Shown piece by piece: positions 1 to 12,220 of a DNA stretch of 55,338 nucleotides (position 1 is its first letter; the number at the start of each line of letters is the position of its first letter). Origin of the DNA: Bacteroidota bacterium (GTDB taxonomy: Bacteria > Bacteroidota > Bacteroidia > Bacteroidales > UBA12077); assembly GCA_020049295.1 (NCBI GenBank), contig JAIFLC010000024.1:1-55338 (forward strand), written 5' to 3'. The notes under the pieces were generated by a model. The model was given only the letters and a program-made list of their open reading frames with translations, ran no database searches and was not told the DNA's origin. Made by a program: the position numbers and the translations under genes.

Positions 1-2837
1 ATTACAAATGAAGGAATTAATTTATGAACTGCTGAGTACAATAACTTCCAATCCTTATTCTTTAAACTCTTTTGCATTGTGTTGATTAAAGGTGGAGTTT
101 GTTCCAGATAAAGCGAAATCATATCCATAATCAATTGATTATTAGATTTTGTATGTTTAATCAAATAATCCAAGTTAATACTTTTTTCTTTTTTACTTTC
201 TGCTTTACTTATGCTCTTTCTTTTTCCTTTAGCATCAGTAGATTTAATTTTCTGAGGGTTTTTAATTAATGCTATTATTTTACTGTATAGCAATCTTTCA
301 TCAACCGGCTTTGCAATGTAATCATTCATACCTACTGCTTTGCATTTAGCTAAATCCACGGTGGTTACATCAGCAGTTAAGGCAATTATAGGAATTTTAG
401 ATTTCATTTTATTTCGAATGTATTCAGTGGCTTCAAATCCATTCATCTCAGGCATTTGTAAGTCCATAAGTATAATATCGAACGAATTAATACTCATCTT
501 TTCGATAGCTATTTTACCATTAGCAGCAATTTCACATGCAAATCCAAAATCATCTAATAGTGTTTTCATAAGCAATTGATTAAGAGGAATATCTTCAACC
601 ACTAATACTTTTATGTTTTTAATTTTTATATCAAGTTCCTCTGTTCCTTGTTCTAATTCTTCATGTGCAGTTGTTTTCTGAAAACTTAATGTAAAACTAA
701 ACGTAGAACCCACATCAATTTTACTTTTTACGGTTATTGAACCTCCTTGTGCTTCAACTAAATGCTTAACAATAGCAAGACCTAGACCGGTTCCACCAAA
801 TAGCCTTGAAGTGCCACTAGTAGCCTGCTGAAAATTTTCAAAAATCGTTTCTTTTTTATCATCTGATATCCCTATTCCGGTATCACTAACTGCAAATTGA
901 ATTTTTACGCTCTTTTTATCTTCACTAAGAAGATGAACACTTACTATTATTTTACCTTTTGTTGAAAACTTAACCGCATTACTTACAAGGTTTATAATAA
1001 TTTGATGCAACCGAACAGGGTCTCCAACCAGTAAATTCGGAATATTTTTGTCGTATTCTTTAACTAATGTTAAATTTTTTTCCTGAATTTTTGTTTCGAA
1101 TAAATGAAGCAAAGCTGATATGGAAAGGTGCATTTTGAAAGGGATTTTTTCAAATGTCATTTTACCGGCATCTACTTTTGCCAAATCGAGTATATCGTTA
1201 ATGAGAACGATTAATGCATCGCCACTCATTTTTATTGCATCTAAGTATTCCTTTTGTTTTGCAGTTAAATCTGTTTTCAGCATTACCTTAGTAAAACCAA
1301 TAATTGCATTCATTGGTGTTCGGATTTCGTGGCTCATATTCGATAGAAATTGCTGTTTTGCTTTCACTGCAACTTCAGCAATGTGAGTAGATTTTTCAGC
1401 TTTAATTTTAGCCTCTTCTGCAAAAAATGTAGCCAACTCAGCAAATGTCTTTGCTTCAATCAATTCAGTTTCTATTCGTTTTTGTTCGGTAATATCACGA
1501 GCAACTACTACTGCTCCAAGTACATTGCCTTCATCGTCCTTATAAACCGATCCATTAAACAGAACATCAGTAAGATTAATGTCTTTAATTGTTAATGTAT
1601 AATCAGCCACAAACCCTTTTGCAAAGACTTCTTTATGGAATTTACGAGCTTTTTTAGGGTCGGTAAAATAATCGAAAAAATTAGTGTTAATAATTTTTTC
1701 ACGTGATAATCTTAATATGTTTACTGAAGCCTTATTCATATCAGTAATTCTTCCATCCAGGTTAATTGTAAACAATGGATCAAGACTGGCTTCAATAAGA
1801 CTTCGGGCGTAGTTTGCAATTCTTAATTCCACTGCTCGCTTTTCTTTTTCTCTGTTTTGGAATGCAAGTTCTTTATTGGCAATAATTAGCTCTGCTGCTC
1901 GTTTTTCTTTCTCATTGTTTTGGAAAGCAAGTTCTTTATTAGCTATAGCCAGCTCTACTGCTCGCTTTTCTTTCTCCACATTTTGAAACAGAAGTTCTTT
2001 GTTCGCAATGATAAGTTCTGCTGCTCGTTTTCCTTTCTCATTGTTTTGAAAAGCAAGCTCTTTATTGGCTATAATAAGTTCTGCAGCTCGTTTTTCTTTC
2101 TCAACATTTTGAAACAGAAGTTCTTTGTTCGCAATAATTAATTCTGCAGCTCGTTTTTCTTTTTCAGCGTTTTGAAAAGCAAGTTCTTTATTTGCTATAA
2201 TTAGCTCTGCAGCCCTTTTCTCTTTTTCATTATTCTGGAAGGCAAGTTCATTGTTTGCAATAATCAATTCTGCTGCCCTTTTTTCTTTCTCTAAGTTTTG
2301 AAAAGCGAGCTCGTTGTTAGCGATAACCAACTCTGCTGCGCGTTTTTCTTTCTCTCGATTTTGGAAAAGAAGCTCTTTATTGGCGATGCTTAACTCTGCT
2401 GCGCGCCTTTCTTTTTCTAAATTTTGAAAAGCAAGTTCTTTATTGGCTATACGTAACTCTATAGCCGATTTTTGCTCATCGATATCTTTTGCTACTATAA
2501 TTGCACCTATTTCAATCCCTTTATCATCTTTATAAACTGATCCATTGAATAGTATTTCAGTCAATTTACCAGCCTTTTGTCTAAGCATAAGAGTAGAATC
2601 AATTACAAATCCCTTAGCAAAAACTTCTTGATATACTCCAAGTGCTTTTCGGGGTTCTGAAAAACAATCAAAAAAATCAATTCCTATAAGTTCCTTGCGA
2701 GTTAATCCTGTAATTTTAGCCCATGCTTTATTAATATCCATGATTTTCCCTTCGGTACTTATTATCATCAGTGGATTAAGACTCGCTTCGATCAAACTTC
2801 TTGCATATTGAAATTCCTCTGCTCTTATTGTTCCCAT
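1..2837 (-). CDS. Cytoplasmic hybrid sensor histidine kinase, PAS-(21-aa repeat x10)-PAS-HisKA-HATPase-REC-Hpt; 3' end lies beyond the window edge
   Basis: Manual translation from ATG at 2837 (MGTIRAEEFQYARSLIEASLNPL...). H-box FLSNMSHEIRTPMNAIIGF (~1300-1350), G-boxes DTGIGI and GGTGLGL, receiver VEDIPLN...MDLQMP...KP, Hpt-like LYSAVHKLIPSF near position 1. Same frame at both ends. Absent from the ORF track, apparently because its stop is outside the window. Confidence 0.93.
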   Translation of the reverse strand, partial: MGTIRAEEFQYARSLIEASLNPLMIISTEGKIMDINKAWAKITGLTRKELIGIDFFDCFSEPRKALGVYQEVFAKGFVIDSTLMLRQKAGKLTEILFNGSVYKDDKGIEIGAIIVAKDIDEQKSAIELRIANKELAFQNLEKERRAAELSIANKELLFQNREKEKRAAELVIANNELAFQNLEKEKRAAELIIANNELAFQNNEKEKRAAELIIANKELAFQNAEKEKRAAELIIANKELLFQNVEKEKRAAELIIANKELAFQNNEKGKRAAELIIANKELLFQNVEKEKRAVELAIANKELAFQNNEKEKRAAELIIANKELAFQNREKEKRAVELRIANYARSLIEASLDPLFTINLDGRITDMNKASVNILRLSREKIINTNFFDYFTDPKKARKFHKEVFAKGFVADYTLTIKDINLTDVLFNGSVYKDDEGNVLGAVVVARDITEQKRIETELIEAKTFAELATFFAEEAKIKAEKSTHIAEVAVKAKQQFLSNMSHEIRTPMNAIIGFTKVMLKTDLTAKQKEYLDAIKMSGDALIVLINDILDLAKVDAGKMTFEKIPFKMHLSISALLHLFETKIQEKNLTLVKEYDKNIPNLLVGDPVRLHQIIINLVSNAVKFSTKGKIIVSVHLLSEDKKSVKIQFAVSDTGIGISDDKKETIFENFQQATSGTSRLFGGTGLGLAIVKHLVEAQGGSITVKSKIDVGSTFSFTLSFQKTTAHEELEQGTEELDIKIKNIKVLVVEDIPLNQLLMKTLLDDFGFACEIAANGKIAIEKMSINSFDIILMDLQMPEMNGFEATEYIRNKMKSKIPIIALTADVTTVDLAKCKAVGMNDYIAKPVDERLLYSKIIALIKNPQKIKSTDAKGKRKSISKAESKKEKSINLDYLIKHTKSNNQLIMDMISLYLEQTPPLINTMQKSLKNKDWKLLYSAVHKLIPSFV
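1812..2459 (-). repeat. In-frame 63-bp tandem repeat, 10 full copies plus a 6-aa partial, consensus ELxIANKELAFQNxEKEKRAA
   Basis: Read codon by codon; full units span 1830-2459 and the partial ELRIAN spans 1812-1829. Confidence 0.97.
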
Positions 2838-2901
2838 CTTTTCCTTTTAATGCACCTTAGGTTAAATTACTTTTAATTAAAACTATAATAATCTGACGAA
2901 C

Positions 2902-3474
2902 TTAAATTGGATTACCAATATCTTCAATCGGTGTTCGTTGTTTGTCCTTCAAATTTTTAAAATGAGAGGGAGTAAGTCCTGTTTCTTTTTTAAATTGATT
3001 TGATAAATGTGCAACACTACTGTAATTCATTTTATATGCAATTTCAGTAATACTTAGTTCATCATAAATAATTAATTCTTTTATACGTTCAATCTTATGA
3101 GAAATAATGAATTGAGCAATAGTCATTCCTTGTACTTCTGAAAACAAATTAGATAAATACGTATAATCGTAATTCAGTTTTTCACTAATATGGACAGAAA
3201 ACTTCTTTTTAATTATCTCACCGGGATAATGAACCATCTCAATTACTGTATTTTTGATTTTTCCAATCAATACAGCTTTTTTGTCGTCCATCAATTCGAT
3301 ACCTGATTCGGATAAAGCTTTTTTAAGCTGTTCTCGTTGTGCCATAGAAATATCTTCCATGATCTCAACTTCGCCTAAATCAACAACAACAAAATGCAAA
3401 CCGAGTTTTCTCAACTCGGTTTTTACCGCTATTTTACAACGGTTACTCACCATGTATTTGAAAAATAATTTCAA
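2902..3474 (-). CDS. AraC-family transcriptional regulator with short N-terminal domain
   Basis: C-terminal double HTH (YTYLSNLFSE...ELSITEIAYKMNYSSVAHLSNQFKKETGLTPSHF); TTG start; N-terminal MVSNRC. Confidence 0.92.
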   Translation of the reverse strand: MKLFFKYMVSNRCKIAVKTELRKLGLHFVVVDLGEVEIMEDISMAQREQLKKALSESGIELMDDKKAVLIGKIKNTVIEMVHYPGEIIKKKFSVHISEKLNYDYTYLSNLFSEVQGMTIAQFIISHKIERIKELIIYDELSITEIAYKMNYSSVAHLSNQFKKETGLTPSHFKNLKDKQRTPIEDIGNPI

Positions 3475-3502
3475 AATAGTTCTAATTTAGATTAAGATGA
3501 GG

Positions 3503-3567
3503 TGAAGGTATATGAAACATGGAAGGATAATATTACACAAAACAATGAATTACTTATATAATTCACA
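3503..3567 (-). promoter_or_regulatory. Putative operator/promoter upstream of the AraC gene (TGTGAA plus two 21-bp-spaced half-sites plus degenerate -7 box)
   Basis: + strand: tgaaggta 3503-3510, ttacacaa 3533-3540, ttatataa 3554-3561, ttcaca 3562-3567; same spacing as 6716-6780. Confidence 0.65.
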
Positions 3568-3636
3568 GGTTTTTATGCTCCAATAAAAAATCAGGGAGTA
3601 AAATTGTTTTATGTCAGTATCAACTCTTTTTAAGAG

Positions 3637-6291
3637 TTACTTTTTTAAACGTGCTCGGATAAATATTTTGATAATCTCATTAAACAATAGTGGAACTAAA
3701 CCTAATGAAATGGCAATTATCCAACCACCAAGATCAAGCATTTGCAAATGAAACGCTCTTTGCATTACCGGAATTCCAATTACGATTAATTGAAGAAGTA
3801 CACCCAACAAAATGGCTCCAATTAGGTATTTATTAGAGAATACCCCGATCTGAAAAACTGATTTTGAACTGTTTCTAACCGCTAAAGAGAAGAATAACTG
3901 ACACATAACCAATGTCATAAAAGCCATTGTGCGGGCATATTCTACTGTATTTGTCGGAGCTGAATGATCAAAAGGGCTGTATCCATGTTCATAATATCCA
4001 AACCAGAAAGCTACGATTGTTAATGCTCCGATTAAGAAACCACCCAGAATAATATGAAGGCCAGCGCCTCCTGCAAAGAAACTCTCTTTTGAGTTACGTG
4101 GTTTTTCTTTCATAACTTCGGGGTTTCCGGGATCCATTCCTAATGCAATTGCAGGAAAAGAATCGGTTAGGAGATTAATCCACAGAAGCTGAGTTGCAAT
4201 TAATGGTGCTTCTAAACCAATAAGTAATGTAATAAACAGAGTAATCACTTCGCCCAAATTACAAGTAAGGAGAAAAATGACCGATTTTTTAATGTTGTTG
4301 TAAATATTTCTGCCTTGTTCTATTGCAGAAACAATAGTTGCAAAATTGTCATCCATAAGAATCATATCCGAGGCTCCTTTTGCAACATCGGTACCGGTAA
4401 TTCCCATTGCCACGCCAATATCGGCAGCATTTAGAGATGGCGCATCGTTAACTCCATCACCGGTCATGGATACAATATGTCCATGAGACTTTAACGCATG
4501 AACAATTTTTACTTTATGCTCAGGAGAAACACGAGCAAATACACGATATCCTTCAATTTTTTCAATAAATTCTTCTTCTGACAAATCATCCATTTCCTGA
4601 CCTGTAATTGCCTGATCAATGGTTTTAGCTATTCCTAATTCAAAAGCAATAGCAAATGCTGTATTTTTATGGTCGCCTGTAATCATTATAGATGTAATTC
4701 CGGCGTTTTTGGCTAATTCGATAGACGCCTTTACTTCTGGACGAGGAGGGTCAATCATTCCCACAAAGCCTGCAAAGATAAGGTCTTTCTCCATTTCAGA
4801 AGTTTCAACAACAGCGTTTACTGGTTTATAGGCAACACCAAGTGTACGAAGCGCTTTGTTCGACATATTTTCTTCAGCCTTTAAGTATTGCTTTTTGTGT
4901 GCTTCAGTAATCGGAACTACTTTACCCTTTTCTAAAACATGAGTTGAAATTTTGATTAGATTGGCAATTGCTCCTTTCGTATAAACGGTAAGCTTTCCAT
5001 CTTCTTCGTTAAGTGTTGACATTAATTTTCGATCCGAATCGAAAGAAAACTCACCAACACGTTTATTCCCTGCATTAATTTTCTTTCTGTCAATTTCCAA
5101 ATCATCTCCAAAAAGTAACAGTGCAATTTCTGTTGGGTCGCCTGTGCCGTTTCCATTTTCGTAGGTTGCATCGGAACAAAGCACCATGGCTTTAGCAAGT
5201 AATTTTGCATCTTCTGTAGCGCTATTATTCTTATTCCGCTCAACAGTTATTTCACCATCCAGATTGAAATAGGCCTCAACAGTCATCTTATTTTGAGTTA
5301 ATGTACCTGTTTTATCAGAGCAGATAATATTTACAGATCCTAATGTTTCAACCGCGGGTAATTTCTTTATGATCGCTTTTTTCTTCGACATGTTTGTAAC
5401 ACCAATAGAAAGGACAACGGCTACAATGGCTGCAAGTCCTTCTGGTATAGCTGCTACAGCTAAAGAAACTGACAAAATAAACATTTCGGCCAAATCACGA
5501 CCTTGAAGTAAGGCAATAATAAAAATAACAACACATATTCCGATGGCAAACTTACCAAGTGTTTTTCCTAGCTGATCTAAACGAATTTCAAGAGGAGTTT
5601 TTGCCTTTTTTTCGGTGTTTATGAGATTTGCAATTTTACCAACTTCGGTATTCATACCCGTTTCAACCACAACTCCAACTCCTCTTCCACTGGTTACTAA
5701 AGTTGACATATAAGCAATGTTTGCCCGATCTCCCAGTGGTGTTTTAAGATCGCTAATAAGAAGTGATGCATCTTTATCGGCAGGTACAGATTCACCTGTA
5801 AGTGCAGATTCTTCGATCTGAAGATTTGCCGATTCAATTAAACGAATATCAGCAGCAATAAACCTTCCGGCATCAAGAATTAAAATATCACCCAGTACAA
5901 TTTCATGAGAATTCACTTCTTTAACTTCATTGTTTCTTCGTACAAGTGCTTTCGGAAACGACATTTTCTGGAGTGCATCAATTGCTTTGCCTGCCTTAAC
6001 TTCCTGAATTACTCCTAGTACAGCATTTGTAATTATAACAAGTATAATGATTATTGCATCAATATACTCACCCATAACCAGAGTAATAACTACAGCCACA
6101 AATAGGATATATATAAGCCATTCCTGAAGTTGAGCAACAAACAATTGGAGAATATTCTTCTTCTTTTTTCCTAGCAACTTGTTTGCACCATATAATGCTA
6201 ATCTGGCTTTTGCATCTTCTTCTGAAAGACCAGACTCCGGGTTAACATTAATTTCTTTTAGGACTTCTTCTTTTGATTTAGAAAACCACAT
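3637..6291 (-). CDS. Cation-translocating P-type ATPase, P2A / Ca2+-ATPase-like
   Basis: TGES, IPEGL, DKTGTLT, TGD, TGDGVNDAP and LWINLLTD motifs. Confidence 0.95.
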   Translation of the reverse strand: MWFSKSKEEVLKEINVNPESGLSEEDAKARLALYGANKLLGKKKKNILQLFVAQLQEWLIYILFVAVVITLVMGEYIDAIIIILVIITNAVLGVIQEVKAGKAIDALQKMSFPKALVRRNNEVKEVNSHEIVLGDILILDAGRFIAADIRLIESANLQIEESALTGESVPADKDASLLISDLKTPLGDRANIAYMSTLVTSGRGVGVVVETGMNTEVGKIANLINTEKKAKTPLEIRLDQLGKTLGKFAIGICVVIFIIALLQGRDLAEMFILSVSLAVAAIPEGLAAIVAVVLSIGVTNMSKKKAIIKKLPAVETLGSVNIICSDKTGTLTQNKMTVEAYFNLDGEITVERNKNNSATEDAKLLAKAMVLCSDATYENGNGTGDPTEIALLLFGDDLEIDRKKINAGNKRVGEFSFDSDRKLMSTLNEEDGKLTVYTKGAIANLIKISTHVLEKGKVVPITEAHKKQYLKAEENMSNKALRTLGVAYKPVNAVVETSEMEKDLIFAGFVGMIDPPRPEVKASIELAKNAGITSIMITGDHKNTAFAIAFELGIAKTIDQAITGQEMDDLSEEEFIEKIEGYRVFARVSPEHKVKIVHALKSHGHIVSMTGDGVNDAPSLNAADIGVAMGITGTDVAKGASDMILMDDNFATIVSAIEQGRNIYNNIKKSVIFLLTCNLGEVITLFITLLIGLEAPLIATQLLWINLLTDSFPAIALGMDPGNPEVMKEKPRNSKESFFAGGAGLHIILGGFLIGALTIVAFWFGYYEHGYSPFDHSAPTNTVEYARTMAFMTLVMCQLFFSLAVRNSSKSVFQIGVFSNKYLIGAILLGVLLQLIVIGIPVMQRAFHLQMLDLGGWIIAISLGLVPLLFNEIIKIFIRARLKK

Positions 6292-6295
6292 CTTA

Positions 6296-6303
6296 CAAAG
6301 TTA
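6296..6303 (-). promoter_or_regulatory. Bacteroidota -7 promoter box TAACTTTG, 4 nt upstream of the ATPase ATG
   Basis: caaagtta on + strand matches the TAnnTTTG consensus. Confidence 0.6.
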
Positions 6304-6506
6304 AATATTTTACATCAATATTAATTGAAATATAAAATACCGTTTGTGCTTACACAATTATCAATATAGGCTGCACCTCATTGTATTGCATTTACGCTAA
6401 AACGGTATTAAGCAAATGATTTACCCAATTAAAAACTAACTTTCAATCGATGGTTAGAAATCAATATAGGATTTTTAGAAATGTAATCCTTTAATTTTCA
6501 TTAAGT

Positions 6507-6692
6507 CTACACATGTAAATCCTTAAGATAGCTTAAAACCCCAAATATTTTTAGTAGCCATACGATTACAACAATCACAACAACAACATTTAAGATTTTT
6601 TTTATTTTCCCATCCATTGGAATGTAATTATTAACAAGCCATAGAAGAACACCTGCAATAATCAGTACAATTAAAATAGTTAATAGTGGCAT
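6507..6692 (-). CDS. Small two-TM membrane protein (Thivi_2564-like family)
   Basis: 61 aa; two hydrophobic helices joined by NNYIPMDGKIKKILN; family recognised from memory. Confidence 0.82.
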   Translation of the reverse strand: MPLLTILIVLIIAGVLLWLVNNYIPMDGKIKKILNVVVVIVVIVWLLKIFGVLSYLKDLHV

Positions 6693-6715
6693 AATAATTT
6701 AGTTTTAGTTTGCAA

Positions 6716-6780
6716 CAAAAGTAATTCGCCCAAGTATTTTATATGTTGCATAACTTTTGAAAAGAATTACATTATTCACA
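6716..6780 (-). promoter_or_regulatory. Putative operator/promoter upstream of the small membrane protein (second copy of the motif)
   Basis: + strand: caaaagta 6716-6723 (TACTTTTG on -), ttgcataa 6746-6753, ttacatta 6767-6774, ttcaca 6775-6780. Confidence 0.68.
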
Positions 6781-7012
6781 CGTTTTCTTTTCATTGATGT
6801 GATTTCTGGAATAAATCAAGCAACTAATTTTTCATATAATTCATTAATCATTGTGAATCATTATTTCTGGATTTAGCCTGTGATATTTAATAATTGTTTA
6901 TATTGCCGCTTTGAACTTTAGATTTGTGAAGTGAATTGAAACAAATGTACACTCGATAAATTGAAGAGTTTTAACAATTTATTAAAATATTACTTAAAAT
7001 TTAAGTGAATTT

Positions 7013-7765
7013 ATGGAAGAAAGGTTTTCAGAAACTCAAACGGTACAGGAAGAACAATATCGTTTCCCACACCATTATGTACCCCAATTTAAAGGAGGTT
7101 TTTCAACTTCGGTTTATTCAGGTTTTGGAATCAATTATGTAAGTACTATTGAATTTCTTTTTTCCAAACTCGATAAAATAGAATTTAATTCTTTAGCTGA
7201 TATTGGCGCTGGTGATGGACGATTAGTAAAGGAAATTACAGAACAATACCCTACTAAAAAGGTAACCGGTATAGATTATTCACAAAGGGCAATTAATATG
7301 GCCAAGGGATTAAACCCTACACATGATTTTATTATGGCTGATATCATCAATGATAACATACTGAATAAATTTGATGTATTAACCCTTATTGAAGTTTTTG
7401 AACATATCCCAATAGAAATATGCGATGACTTTGTGAATGCCTTACACGAATTATTAAATAGTAATGGATTATTATTACTTACAGTGCCTCATGTAAACAA
7501 ACCCGTTTCAAAAAAACATTATCAACATTTTTCATCTACAAGCCTAAAAGAATATTTTGAGAAAAAGTTTTTTGTTGAAGAAGAAATCTTTTTTGAAGTA
7601 AAAAACTGGCGATTGTTTTTCATCAGGAAATTATTAAAAAACAAACTCTTTCTTTTAAATAACCAGTGGATGCTCAATTGCTTGTACAAATCATATAAAA
7701 AGCATTGCTTTTATGCGGTTGAAAAAAACTGTGGAAGAATATTCTTAAAGCTTAGAAAAAAATAA
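7013..7765 (+). CDS. Class I SAM-dependent methyltransferase
   Basis: Motif I LADIGAGDG, GIDYS, FDVLTLIEVFEH, GLLLLTVP. Confidence 0.9.
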   Translation: MEERFSETQTVQEEQYRFPHHYVPQFKGGFSTSVYSGFGINYVSTIEFLFSKLDKIEFNSLADIGAGDGRLVKEITEQYPTKKVTGIDYSQRAINMAKGLNPTHDFIMADIINDNILNKFDVLTLIEVFEHIPIEICDDFVNALHELLNSNGLLLLTVPHVNKPVSKKHYQHFSSTSLKEYFEKKFFVEEEIFFEVKNWRLFFIRKLLKNKLFLLNNQWMLNCLYKSYKKHCFYAVEKNCGRIFLKLRKK

Positions 7766-11527: not shown

Positions 11528-12220
11528 ATGATCTCTGAAAGCCACAATATTATTGATAATCAAATGTCTGTTTTTAGTGTGCTAAATATTGAGGAAAAAG
11601 AATTACTCAAACGAAACAGTACATGTACCCACTTTAAAAAAGGTGATATTATTTATAAAGAGGGTGATAAACCTTCTGGTTTAATCTGCCTTTCGAAAGG
11701 GAAAGTAAAAATCTTTAAAGAGGGCGTTGGCGGACGTGAACAGATAGTTCGAATGGCTAAACCAGTTGGATTTATAGGATACAGAGCATTATTTGCCGAA
11801 CAATACTATATTGCATCAGCTGAAGCAATTGAAGACAGCGTAATTTGCACAATTGAAAAAGATTCATTGTACAAGGTATTAAAAAGTAATTCAGAATTTT
11901 CGCTTAATATCATTCATTCGCTTGCATCAGAATTGGGTTTTTCAAATAACAGAACGGTAACTCTTACTCAAAAACATATTCGTGGAAGACTTGCTGAATC
12001 GCTTATTTTTCTTAAAGATACGTACGGACTTGAAGAAGATAAATCTACCATAAAAGTATACTTGTCGCGTGAGGATATTGCTAACCTATCGAACATGACT
12101 ACCTCTAATGCAATACGAACCTTATCGACTTTTGCTACTGAAAAAATCATTACACTCGATGGTCGAAAAATAAGAATTCTGGACATTAAAGGCCTCGAGC
12201 GAATAAGCGAACTCGGATAA
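11528..12220 (+). CDS. Crp/Fnr-family transcriptional regulator
   Basis: cNMP-binding-like domain and C-terminal HTH (LSREDIANLSNMTTSNAIRTL). Confidence 0.93.
   Translation: MISESHNIIDNQMSVFSVLNIEEKELLKRNSTCTHFKKGDIIYKEGDKPSGLICLSKGKVKIFKEGVGGREQIVRMAKPVGFIGYRALFAEQYYIASAEAIEDSVICTIEKDSLYKVLKSNSEFSLNIIHSLASELGFSNNRTVTLTQKHIRGRLAESLIFLKDTYGLEEDKSTIKVYLSREDIANLSNMTTSNAIRTLSTFATEKIITLDGRKIRILDIKGLERISELG

Follow-up and report, generated by a model that had tools for sequence, protein, structure and literature searches.

Class II promoters of the AraC/XylS family, exemplified by AraC I1-I2, RhaS/RhaR, XylS Om, and MelR, carry two direct half-sites set 21 base pairs (bp; i.e., two helical turns) apart, each ~17 bp long with two boxes, the proximal one abutting or overlapping a poor -35 element; autoregulation is also found in the family. 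Here, we describe a composite promoter element of this kind that occurs twice in a 55,338-nucleotide (nt) stretch of DNA from a Bacteroidota bacterium (assembly GCA_020049295.1, contig JAIFLC010000024.1, positions 1 to 55,338; hereafter the window), once 5′ of a gene for a short AraC-family regulator and once 5′ of a gene for a 61-amino-acid (aa) membrane protein. The element is probably an activator-dependent sigma-A promoter that would be bound at its 21-bp direct repeats by the short AraC protein, itself autoregulated and driving a general-stress-like regulon. Unlike the described class II systems, each of which serves one catabolic operon, the present one has a promoter of the Bacteroidota -7/-33 type, a dispersed stress-like regulon, a PAS histidine kinase as partner, and a regulator whose N-terminal domain is not a cupin but a ~75-aa beta-alpha-beta-beta-alpha module.

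Other described systems are similar in part. MarA, SoxS, and Rob share the AraC-family DNA-binding domain (as fold matches indicate) and also govern a dispersed stress regulon through an asymmetric ~20-bp box; however, each works as a monomer at one degenerate box, which may point either way, whereas here two phased, high-information boxes stand at a fixed distance from the -7 box. The sigma-B (Bacillus, Listeria), EcfG (Alphaproteobacteria), and RpoS responses overlap with the present system in target families and likewise have a regulator that controls its own operon, with sensor/signalling proteins encoded alongside it, but no dedicated sigma factor is present here, the primary-sigma -7 box being kept and specificity coming from an upstream activator site. 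YtxH and lmo0937-type proteins are sigma-B targets. Two published reports describe csbD as a well-characterised sigma-B-dependent gene (PMC2248587) and its expression as often mediated by a sigma factor (PMC11109978). Within the Bacteroidota, a second promoter class is described for Bacteroides thetaiotaomicron, i.e., the non-canonical motif PM2 of stationary-phase and oxidative-stress genes; as portrayed there, PM2 is a near-palindromic -10/-30 element, whereas the present element joins a canonical -7 box to direct-repeat boxes reaching to about -70 (PMC7366714).

The two window copies, their parts, and the genes that they precede are as follows:

6780..6716, minus strand: TGTGAATAATGTAA-N13-TTATGCAA-CA-N20-TACTTTTG
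3567..3503, minus strand: TGTGAATTATATAA-N13-TTGTGTAA-TA-N20-TACCTTCA
6716..6784, minus strand: composite promoter 5′ of the Thivi_2564 gene, weight-matrix score 54.0 bits
6784..6766, minus strand: distal box of the Thivi_2564 promoter, AACG-TGTGAATAATGTAAT
6755..6743, minus strand: proximal box of the Thivi_2564 promoter, AGTTATGCAACAT
6723..6716, minus strand: -7 box of the Thivi_2564 promoter, TACTTTTG, a full TAnnTTTG match
3503..3571, minus strand: composite promoter 5′ of the AraC gene, weight-matrix score 37.3 bits, lowest among the five sites of this genome
3571..3553, minus strand: distal box of the AraC promoter
3542..3530, minus strand: proximal box of the AraC promoter
3510..3503, minus strand: weak -7 box of the AraC promoter, TACCTTCA, agreeing at 6 of 8 TAnnTTTG positions, with the last TG absent
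6507..6692, minus strand: Thivi_2564-family membrane protein gene, 61 aa (NCBIfam NF041949, E 1.9e-21, above cut-off)
2902..3453, minus strand: AraC/XylS-family regulator gene, 183 aa (HTH_18, E 3.2e-18)
3..2837, minus strand: hybrid histidine kinase gene, running past the window edge (PAS / coiled-coil repeat / PAS / HisKA-HATPase / receiver / HPt-like, from the translated open reading frame)

A first-pass annotation, made from the letters of the window, had proposed that both regions share one geometry with unrelated spacers, and this is what we find: 21 bp separate ATRTAA from RTGYAA in each, 22 nt separate the proximal box from the TA of the -7 box, and the spacers bear no relation to one another. 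From motif start to start codon, the distance is 88 nt for the Thivi_2564 gene, the first gene 3′ of the 6780 site (ATG at 6692), and 114 nt for the regulator gene (ATG at 3453). The regulator had been taken as a 190-aa protein with a TTG start; the ATG at 3453, yielding 183 aa, is the likelier start because the N-terminus MVSxRCK is conserved in all close homologues.

A genome of 33% G+C, and a pair picked by eye in a 55-kb window, might prompt the suspicion that two AT-rich intergenic regions are alike by chance or through a dispersed mobile repeat; we give this explanation practically no credence, and it was refuted by simulated and reversed-pattern controls. In the window's genome (2.96 Mb, 78.6% complete; G000), the first-pass pattern at ≤1 mismatch has four matches. 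Besides the two window sites, these are C3:8194(-) and C40:23938(+), each of which is intergenic, oriented to the downstream gene, and equipped with a TAnnTTTG-like box at the same offset. In twelve Markov-3 simulated genomes, matches numbered 0 at ≤1 mismatch and averaged 0.08 at ≤2. By a 72-column weight matrix derived from 199 sites, this genome has exactly five, at 37 to 58 bits, with none other above 10 bits, and five simulated genomes have 0 of ≥10 bits; the fifth site, C130:3705, was absent from the training set, and the other four supplied 4 of its 199 rows. The five promoters precede (i) the Thivi_2564 gene, (ii) the AraC-kinase pair, (iii) an operon for proteins of 296, 175, and 375 aa, (iv) an EncB-like ferritin gene, and (v) a gene for a 105-aa lipoprotein-like product followed by one for a 973-aa sensor.

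Beyond this genome, a relaxed pattern (TGTGAATNATRYAA-N13-TKRTRYAA, ≤1 mismatch) run on 41 relatives gave 82 matches in 16 of them and 0 when reversed. When one genome per species was scanned, the AraC protein proved to have at least 569 relatives, and homologues are carried by named isolates such as Pontibacter humidus BT310, Flavihumibacter fluminis RY-1, Flavobacterium cucumis DSM 18830, and Aquimarina sp. SS2-1. In the best 80 loci (1.28 Mb), there were 76, 138, and 180 sites at ≤0, ≤1, and ≤2 mismatches, respectively, with at least one site in 63 of the 80 at ≤2; the corresponding counts were 0/0/0 with the pattern reversed and 0/0/0-1 over ten simulations. Across the genome, the 41 relatives, and the 80 loci, tens to hundreds of real matches thus stand against none at ≤1 mismatch in the simulated-genome and reversed-pattern controls, confirming the shared motif as real. 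Spacers and flanks are unrelated, the element is aimed at a downstream gene at a fixed distance (213 of 245 sites), and its conservation crosses families of the phylum, all of which speaks against chance or a mobile repeat.

The 80 loci are titled Bacteroidales, Prolixibacteraceae, Lentimicrobiaceae, Chitinophagaceae, Flavobacterium, Cyclobacteriaceae, Saprospiraceae, Pontibacter, Flavihumibacter, and Aquimarina, with a few titles naming other phyla. Loci titled Candidatus Saccharibacteria, Balneolales, Polyangiaceae, and Calditrichota (L093, L140, L148, L155) also carry an AraC homologue; L093 and L148 have seven and three strict-pattern sites, respectively, and L140 and L155 have none at ≤2 mismatches, showing only 23- to 27-bit matrix matches at the AraC 3′ end. 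These contigs may be mis-binned Bacteroidota or may reflect transfer.

The architecture of the element was derived from 64 sites with complete flanks, for which the consensus, ~70 bases long, is AATG-TGTGAATnATGTAAC-N11-A(G/A)TTrTGTAACAC(tt)-N19-tAnCTTTGt. Positions that the search pattern left free are conserved as well (A at -2 in 63/64, G at 0 in 57/64, C36 in 42/64). Two TGTAAC cores at positions 10-15 and 31-36 form direct repeats 21 bp apart, and the distal half-site has a second box (TGTGAAT) ~9 bp 5′ of its core, a spacing that would be expected if neighbouring major grooves were contacted by the two helix-turn-helix (HTH) motifs of a single AraC domain. At logo positions 58-65, the sequence is tAnCTTTG, i.e., the primary-sigma -7 box (TAnnTTTG), with A59 in 63, T62, T63, and T64 in 63, 64, and 61, and G in 47 of the 64; its TA falls at position 58, ~22 nt 3′ of the proximal box. 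TTT[GA] stands at position 62 in 60/64 sites, and the element is therefore rigidly phased to the Bacteroidota -7 box. No -33 TTTG is found ~19-21 nt 5′ of the -7 box, where logo positions 33-40 read TAAcactT and are occupied by the proximal box (TAACAC). With its direct half-sites at 21-bp spacing, of which the proximal borders the -35 region, and its weak -35 element, the layout is that of a class II promoter, in agreement with the first-pass proposal of such repeats at a fixed -7 offset, which holds for 60/64 sites. Positions relative to the start site are derived from the customary -7/-33 geometry. Downstream genes begin mostly 85-125 nt past the motif start. Family-wide, the inter-core spacer also has AACTT at logo positions 13-17 and AAGTT at 25-29, a weak inverted repeat (AACTT-N7-AAGTT) that is poorly kept in the window copies (6768-6764 / 6756-6752 and 3555-3551 / 3543-3539) and may serve as a bending signal or as the site of a second protein.

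This architecture bears on two alternatives. The AraC protein might bind yet mainly repress, or be dual in action, e.g., by blocking or looping until a signal arrives. In favour are the dual action of AraC itself, the position of the proximal box over the -35 region, and the inverted repeat between the cores; however, retention of the -7 box with loss of the -33 TTTG is the usual signature of activator dependence, and fixed helical phasing to the -7 box (60/64) is expected for recruitment, such that we hold a mainly repressive role to be improbable. Alternatively, in place of a transcription factor, an alternative sigma factor or a sigma paralogue might recognise the whole element as an extended promoter. 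Genomes of the genus carry 2-5 sigma-70-like paralogues of ~290 aa, one of which lies beside a motif island, and C is preferred at position 61 (TAnCTTTG, 49/64 sites). Against the RpoS model, whose cut-off is 378.7 bits, these paralogues score 240-284 bits; they are located at:

G000:C151:36059-36874 and G000:C118:1060-1884: sigma-70-like paralogues of the window's genome (with 2-5 further places in each of 40 relatives)
G007:C1:1506803-1507627: sigma-70-like paralogue beside an AraC/motif island

Against a sigma-based reading, the conserved boxes at about -38 and -60 lie beyond sigma contact range, the -7 box is the canonical primary-sigma one, and the paralogues occur in 41/41 genomes vs the motif in 16/41, i.e., the two do not track; we thus deem it very improbable. 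RpoS was above the TIGR02394 cut-off in 0/41 genomes, the SigB model not having been searched.

The motif is conserved across Bacteroidota and is associated with an AraC subfamily. The four closest orthologues of the AraC protein (74-80% identity, three families of one taxonomic order) have it 105-115 nt 5′ of the ATG with ≤2 mismatches, and orthologous sites in relatives lie 105-119 nt from the ATG. In the 41-genome sample, the motif is present in 12/12 relatives with an AraC homologue of ≥58% identity; those with only 40-46% paralogues (G008, G020, G032) have no motif, and four have matches without a close homologue (G021, G011, G029, and G039, the last two with a single 1-mismatch match each). 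At phylum scope, 251 genomes were sampled with ≥90% completeness required (G000, at 78.6%, included), and the strict pattern gave 87 matches in 33 genomes, with the reversed control giving 7 in 7; single-match genomes in this sample may be due to chance. The strict motif is found in 15/25 genomes with an AraC match at E ≤1e-60 vs 18/226 others. Of the ten AraC-positive genomes without it, eight have a variant site (TGTGATAtATGTAAC, AGTAAATgATGCAAC, TGTAAAC...) no more than ~170 nt from the AraC 3′ end, and two do not. Sites cluster as islands around AraC genes.

Among 125 distinct AraC homologue genes, a site of ≥20 bits lies upstream of 32 (mode 106-119 nt) and abuts the 3′ end of 43, for 75 with either; the upstream placement that the first-pass annotation had foreseen thus extends from the four closest homologues to 32/125. 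Distant MVCPRC-type paralogues (≤50% identity) have no sites, with two exceptions. In the first gene-first test, the strict motif was not upstream of AraC homologues of 58-66% identity, because their site lies at the gene 3′ end. In the second AraC subgroup, whose sites abut the 3′ end, the motif begins 1 nt before the last aligned residue in 14/80 loci, and ATGTGTGAAT encodes the final residues plus the TGA stop, so that the operator overlaps the stop codon (e.g., L080, L085, L088, L089, L114, L125, L134, L135, L137, L138, L143, L145, L147, and others). The gene after this site most often (17 cases) encodes a 116-aa cupin that weakly matches AraC_binding (E 0.0023). This arrangement is suggestive of a "split AraC," the sensor cupin having a motif-driven gene of its own. 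A tandem order of subgroup 2, site, and subgroup 1 is common.

It is the autoregulated subgroup, including the window gene, that is paired with the kinase: in 21/31 cases, a PAS domain homologous to the N-terminal one of the window kinase is encoded within the next 400 nt, and in 27/31 a kinase core within 4.2 kb downstream, as against 0/43 for the second subgroup. The earlier suggestion that the repeat kinase belongs to the AraC circuit thus fits well beyond the window. There, the kinase reading frame begins 64 nt beyond the AraC stop, and the two genes are probably co-transcribed. In G002 and L114, the gene after that for the kinase encodes a stand-alone receiver. Between its two PAS domains, the window kinase has ~10 tandem 21-aa units (RAAELIIANKELAFQNxEKEK; window ~2460-1850, minus strand), and these repeats are present in the L114 orthologue too.

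The regulator is an AraC/XylS protein by its C-terminal ~100-aa domain with two HTH motifs (HTH_18, 66 bits against a cut-off of 33.6; HTH_AraC, E 9.6e-14). No Pfam family, AraC_binding cupin included, matched residues 1-71; the AraC/XylS family accepts varied N-terminal domains, and lack of a cupin does not exclude membership. An AlphaFold2 model from a 112-sequence alignment (predicted local distance difference test score 83.9) displays the ~75-aa N-terminal module, a long linker helix, and a seven-helix AraC domain, and a PDB fold search returned only AraC-family DNA-binding domains (AraT, MarA, SoxS, Rob, AdpA, AraC; E 2.5e-5 and weaker, template-modelling score to target 0.75-0.82). Paralogues with CxxC have sub-threshold matches to the heavy-metal-associated (HMA) domain (E 0.14-0.27), and an Atlas cluster automatically named "heavy-metal-associated domain-containing" scores 0.90; these offer a lead towards an HMA-like, possibly redox- or metal-sensing, fold for the module. 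Paralogues start with MVCxRC (CxxC) and the window subgroup with MVSxRC (SxxC), C6 being invariant in all 112 sequences. A homodimer prediction for the AraC protein scored 0.34 against a mark of 0.42, counting neither way.

As far as sequence analysis goes, the first-pass interpretation is largely supported, and we infer the AraC protein as the binder, activation as its sign, the start sites, and the stress signal. Several observations weigh against this assignment. (i) Relatives G021 (seven sites, 78% complete) and G011 (two sites, 88% complete) yielded no AraC-family member, even by profile search; this either counts against the assigned binder or reflects incomplete assemblies. (ii) In G054, G059, and G064, which belong to another class, good sites occur with only a divergent, non-adjacent family member (profile E 1e-39 to 1e-53). 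(iii) The E ≤1e-60 cut behind the 15/25 vs 18/226 comparison was set after the data had been seen, and related genomes are not independent samples. (iv) Residue 103, in the first recognition helix, appeared to vary with distal-box base 6 (raw counts 28/0 vs 5/10), an association that is gone in phylogenetically independent pairs; this co-evolution was dropped as evidence, there being no signal in the only four such pairs. (v) The -7 box at the window's own AraC-proximal site is poor. (vi) The AraC protein, to which the kinase would signal, has no receiver domain. (vii) The term "general stress" is based solely on family names, and the largest target classes (ice-binding-like lipoproteins, the cupin, and the 295-aa protein) have no known stress role.

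The first two of these points also feed the proposal that another protein binds the operator, whether an unidentified regulator, the output of the PAS kinase or receiver, or a Crp/Fnr-type factor, and that AraC genes are merely frequent members of the regulon. The AraC protein is only the proposed binder, the co-evolution test is uninformative, and TGTGA resembles a Crp half-site. On the other hand, two AraC subgroups are physically tied to sites (32 upstream and 43 at the stop codon, n = 125), translations of the reading frames in the G002 island, read without a family search on every one, show no DNA-binding protein besides the two AraC genes, and a 21-bp direct repeat, not a palindrome, suits AraC/XylS proteins rather than Crp/Fnr dimers; moreover, G021 and G011 are the incomplete assemblies mentioned above. 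On balance, we judge a different binder to be unlikely, while according it real weight. As it happens, a 230-aa Crp/Fnr-type gene (cyclic-nucleotide-binding and HTH regions judged by eye) lies at 11528-12220 on the plus strand of the window, ~5 kb from the sites, and is a conceivable alternative binder.

With the AraC protein as binder, the following series of events is envisaged. The 183-aa protein (or elsewhere its close paralogue subgroup) would occupy both direct repeats, i.e., a strong distal operator (AATG-TGTGAATnATGTAAC, about -69 to -51) and a weaker proximal one (A(G/A)TTrTGTAACAC) abutting the -35 region, with each of its HTH motifs reading one 7-bp box. From the proximal site, it would recruit primary-sigma RNA polymerase to a promoter without a -33 element, in class II style. 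It would thereby activate its own gene together with that for the PAS hybrid kinase, generating positive feedback, and would also activate dispersed promoters, five in the window's genome. Phylum-wide, the targets would constitute a general-stress-like or envelope-protection regulon. More speculatively, the stand-alone receiver might act on the N-terminal module of the AraC protein. A broader proposal, which we put forward only tentatively, is that the short AraC protein and PAS hybrid kinase form the master general stress regulator for much of the Bacteroidota, filling the sigma-B/RpoS/EcfG role via an activator on a primary-sigma promoter, with the second subgroup being a "split AraC" with a separate, self-induced sensor cupin.

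As to the predicted targets, 245 sites (a 65-site set plus a 180-site set) were inspected for an ATG-started reading frame of ≥35 aa, the distance allowed from the motif start being up to 200 nt in the former set and 66-230 nt in the latter. Such a frame followed 213/245 sites; these were clustered, and representatives were scanned, giving the following first genes:

28/213: the AraC gene itself
25/213: Ice_binding-like / Big_5 / Flg_new lipoproteins
17/213: Cupin_2
17/213: CsbD
14/213: OmpA-family (with DUF4398 or glycine zipper)
7/213: Thivi_2564
6/213: sll1863-family stress protein
6/213: DUF6600
6/213: lmo0937 / DUF5670
6/213: 270-aa kinase-like protein (label read from an HEIRNPL motif, without a family scan)
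5/213: 110-aa protein (without a family scan)
4/213: YtxH
4/213: two-transmembrane 71-aa protein
4/213: 295-aa protein
3/213: His-rich 66-aa protein
2-3 each: further pairs, an outer membrane protein barrel among them
44/213: singletons (including YegP/DUF1508, PepSY-like, and EncB-like ferritin)

A universal stress protein (Usp) gene is found in the L114 island as well. The first-pass guess of a general-stress-type regulon matches this content, i.e., CsbD, YtxH, lmo0937, sll1863-like, OmpA, and Usp proteins. Its designation of the targets as small membrane proteins was too narrow, most being lipoproteins, OmpA-type proteins, and small soluble stress proteins; the Thivi_2564 membrane protein gene does have its site. 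Starting from the gene, Thivi_2564 family members above cut-off occur in 2/41 relatives and 6/301 class-level genomes, seven distinct in all (G000 being in both). Three of the seven have a site 94-106 nt upstream, in line with the expected motif at homologues of this gene; of the other four, two have a site ~0.5 kb upstream behind a small gene (lmo0937-like in one), and two have none on the same strand upstream.

Searches of the full-text literature (subscription-only papers and supplements being outside their scope) brought up neither the motif nor the regulon, nor a general stress regulator for Bacteroidota. The AraC protein family and the promoter logic are of known kinds; the element, the regulon, the PAS-kinase pairing, the non-cupin N-terminal module, and the stop-codon-embedded operator appear to be undescribed. 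A high-information ~70-bp promoter would allow the predicted regulon to be read straight from any genome, along with a candidate regulator and sensor kinase, and would let small "hypothetical" stress proteins be annotated (Thivi_2564, lmo0937, DUF6600, and the 295-aa and 66-aa families). Such a promoter would also account for islands of small stress-type genes, give Bacteroidota genetics an inducible promoter that is portable and tightly controlled, and provide a clean case of specificity shifted from sigma factor to activator with the primary -7 box retained.

Between the two window promoters sits one further gene:

3637..6291, minus strand: P-type cation ATPase (Ca-type, IIA-like), 884 aa (Pfam and NCBIfam)

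Its best models are of the PMR1/SERCA type, each below its equivalog cut-off. The 215-nt gap to the Thivi_2564 gene contained no terminator-like site in a terminator scan, and the two genes are possibly co-transcribed. L114 is the closest relative with the ATPase, its ortholog being 79% identical and lying inside a motif island ordered AraC2, site, AraC1, PAS kinase, receiver, site, OmpA, Usp, ATPase, site, ferritin-like. The ATPase is thus kept within a motif island in both the window genome and L114, and the motif may control it as a regulon member.

A transcribed RNA element is unlikely, because the boxes lie 5′ of the -7 box; Rfam matched no family at E ≤1 in 2500-7200. In a sigma-70 promoter scan, promoter-like matches were no commoner than in shuffles, and the same scan found no intergenic terminators. 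One terminator-like flag was raised inside the AraC coding region, 30 nt into the frame: at 3422-3398 on the minus strand, a 10-bp, G+C-containing hairpin with a T-rich stretch (AAACCGAGTT-GAGAA-AACTCGGTTT) could represent attenuation or chance.

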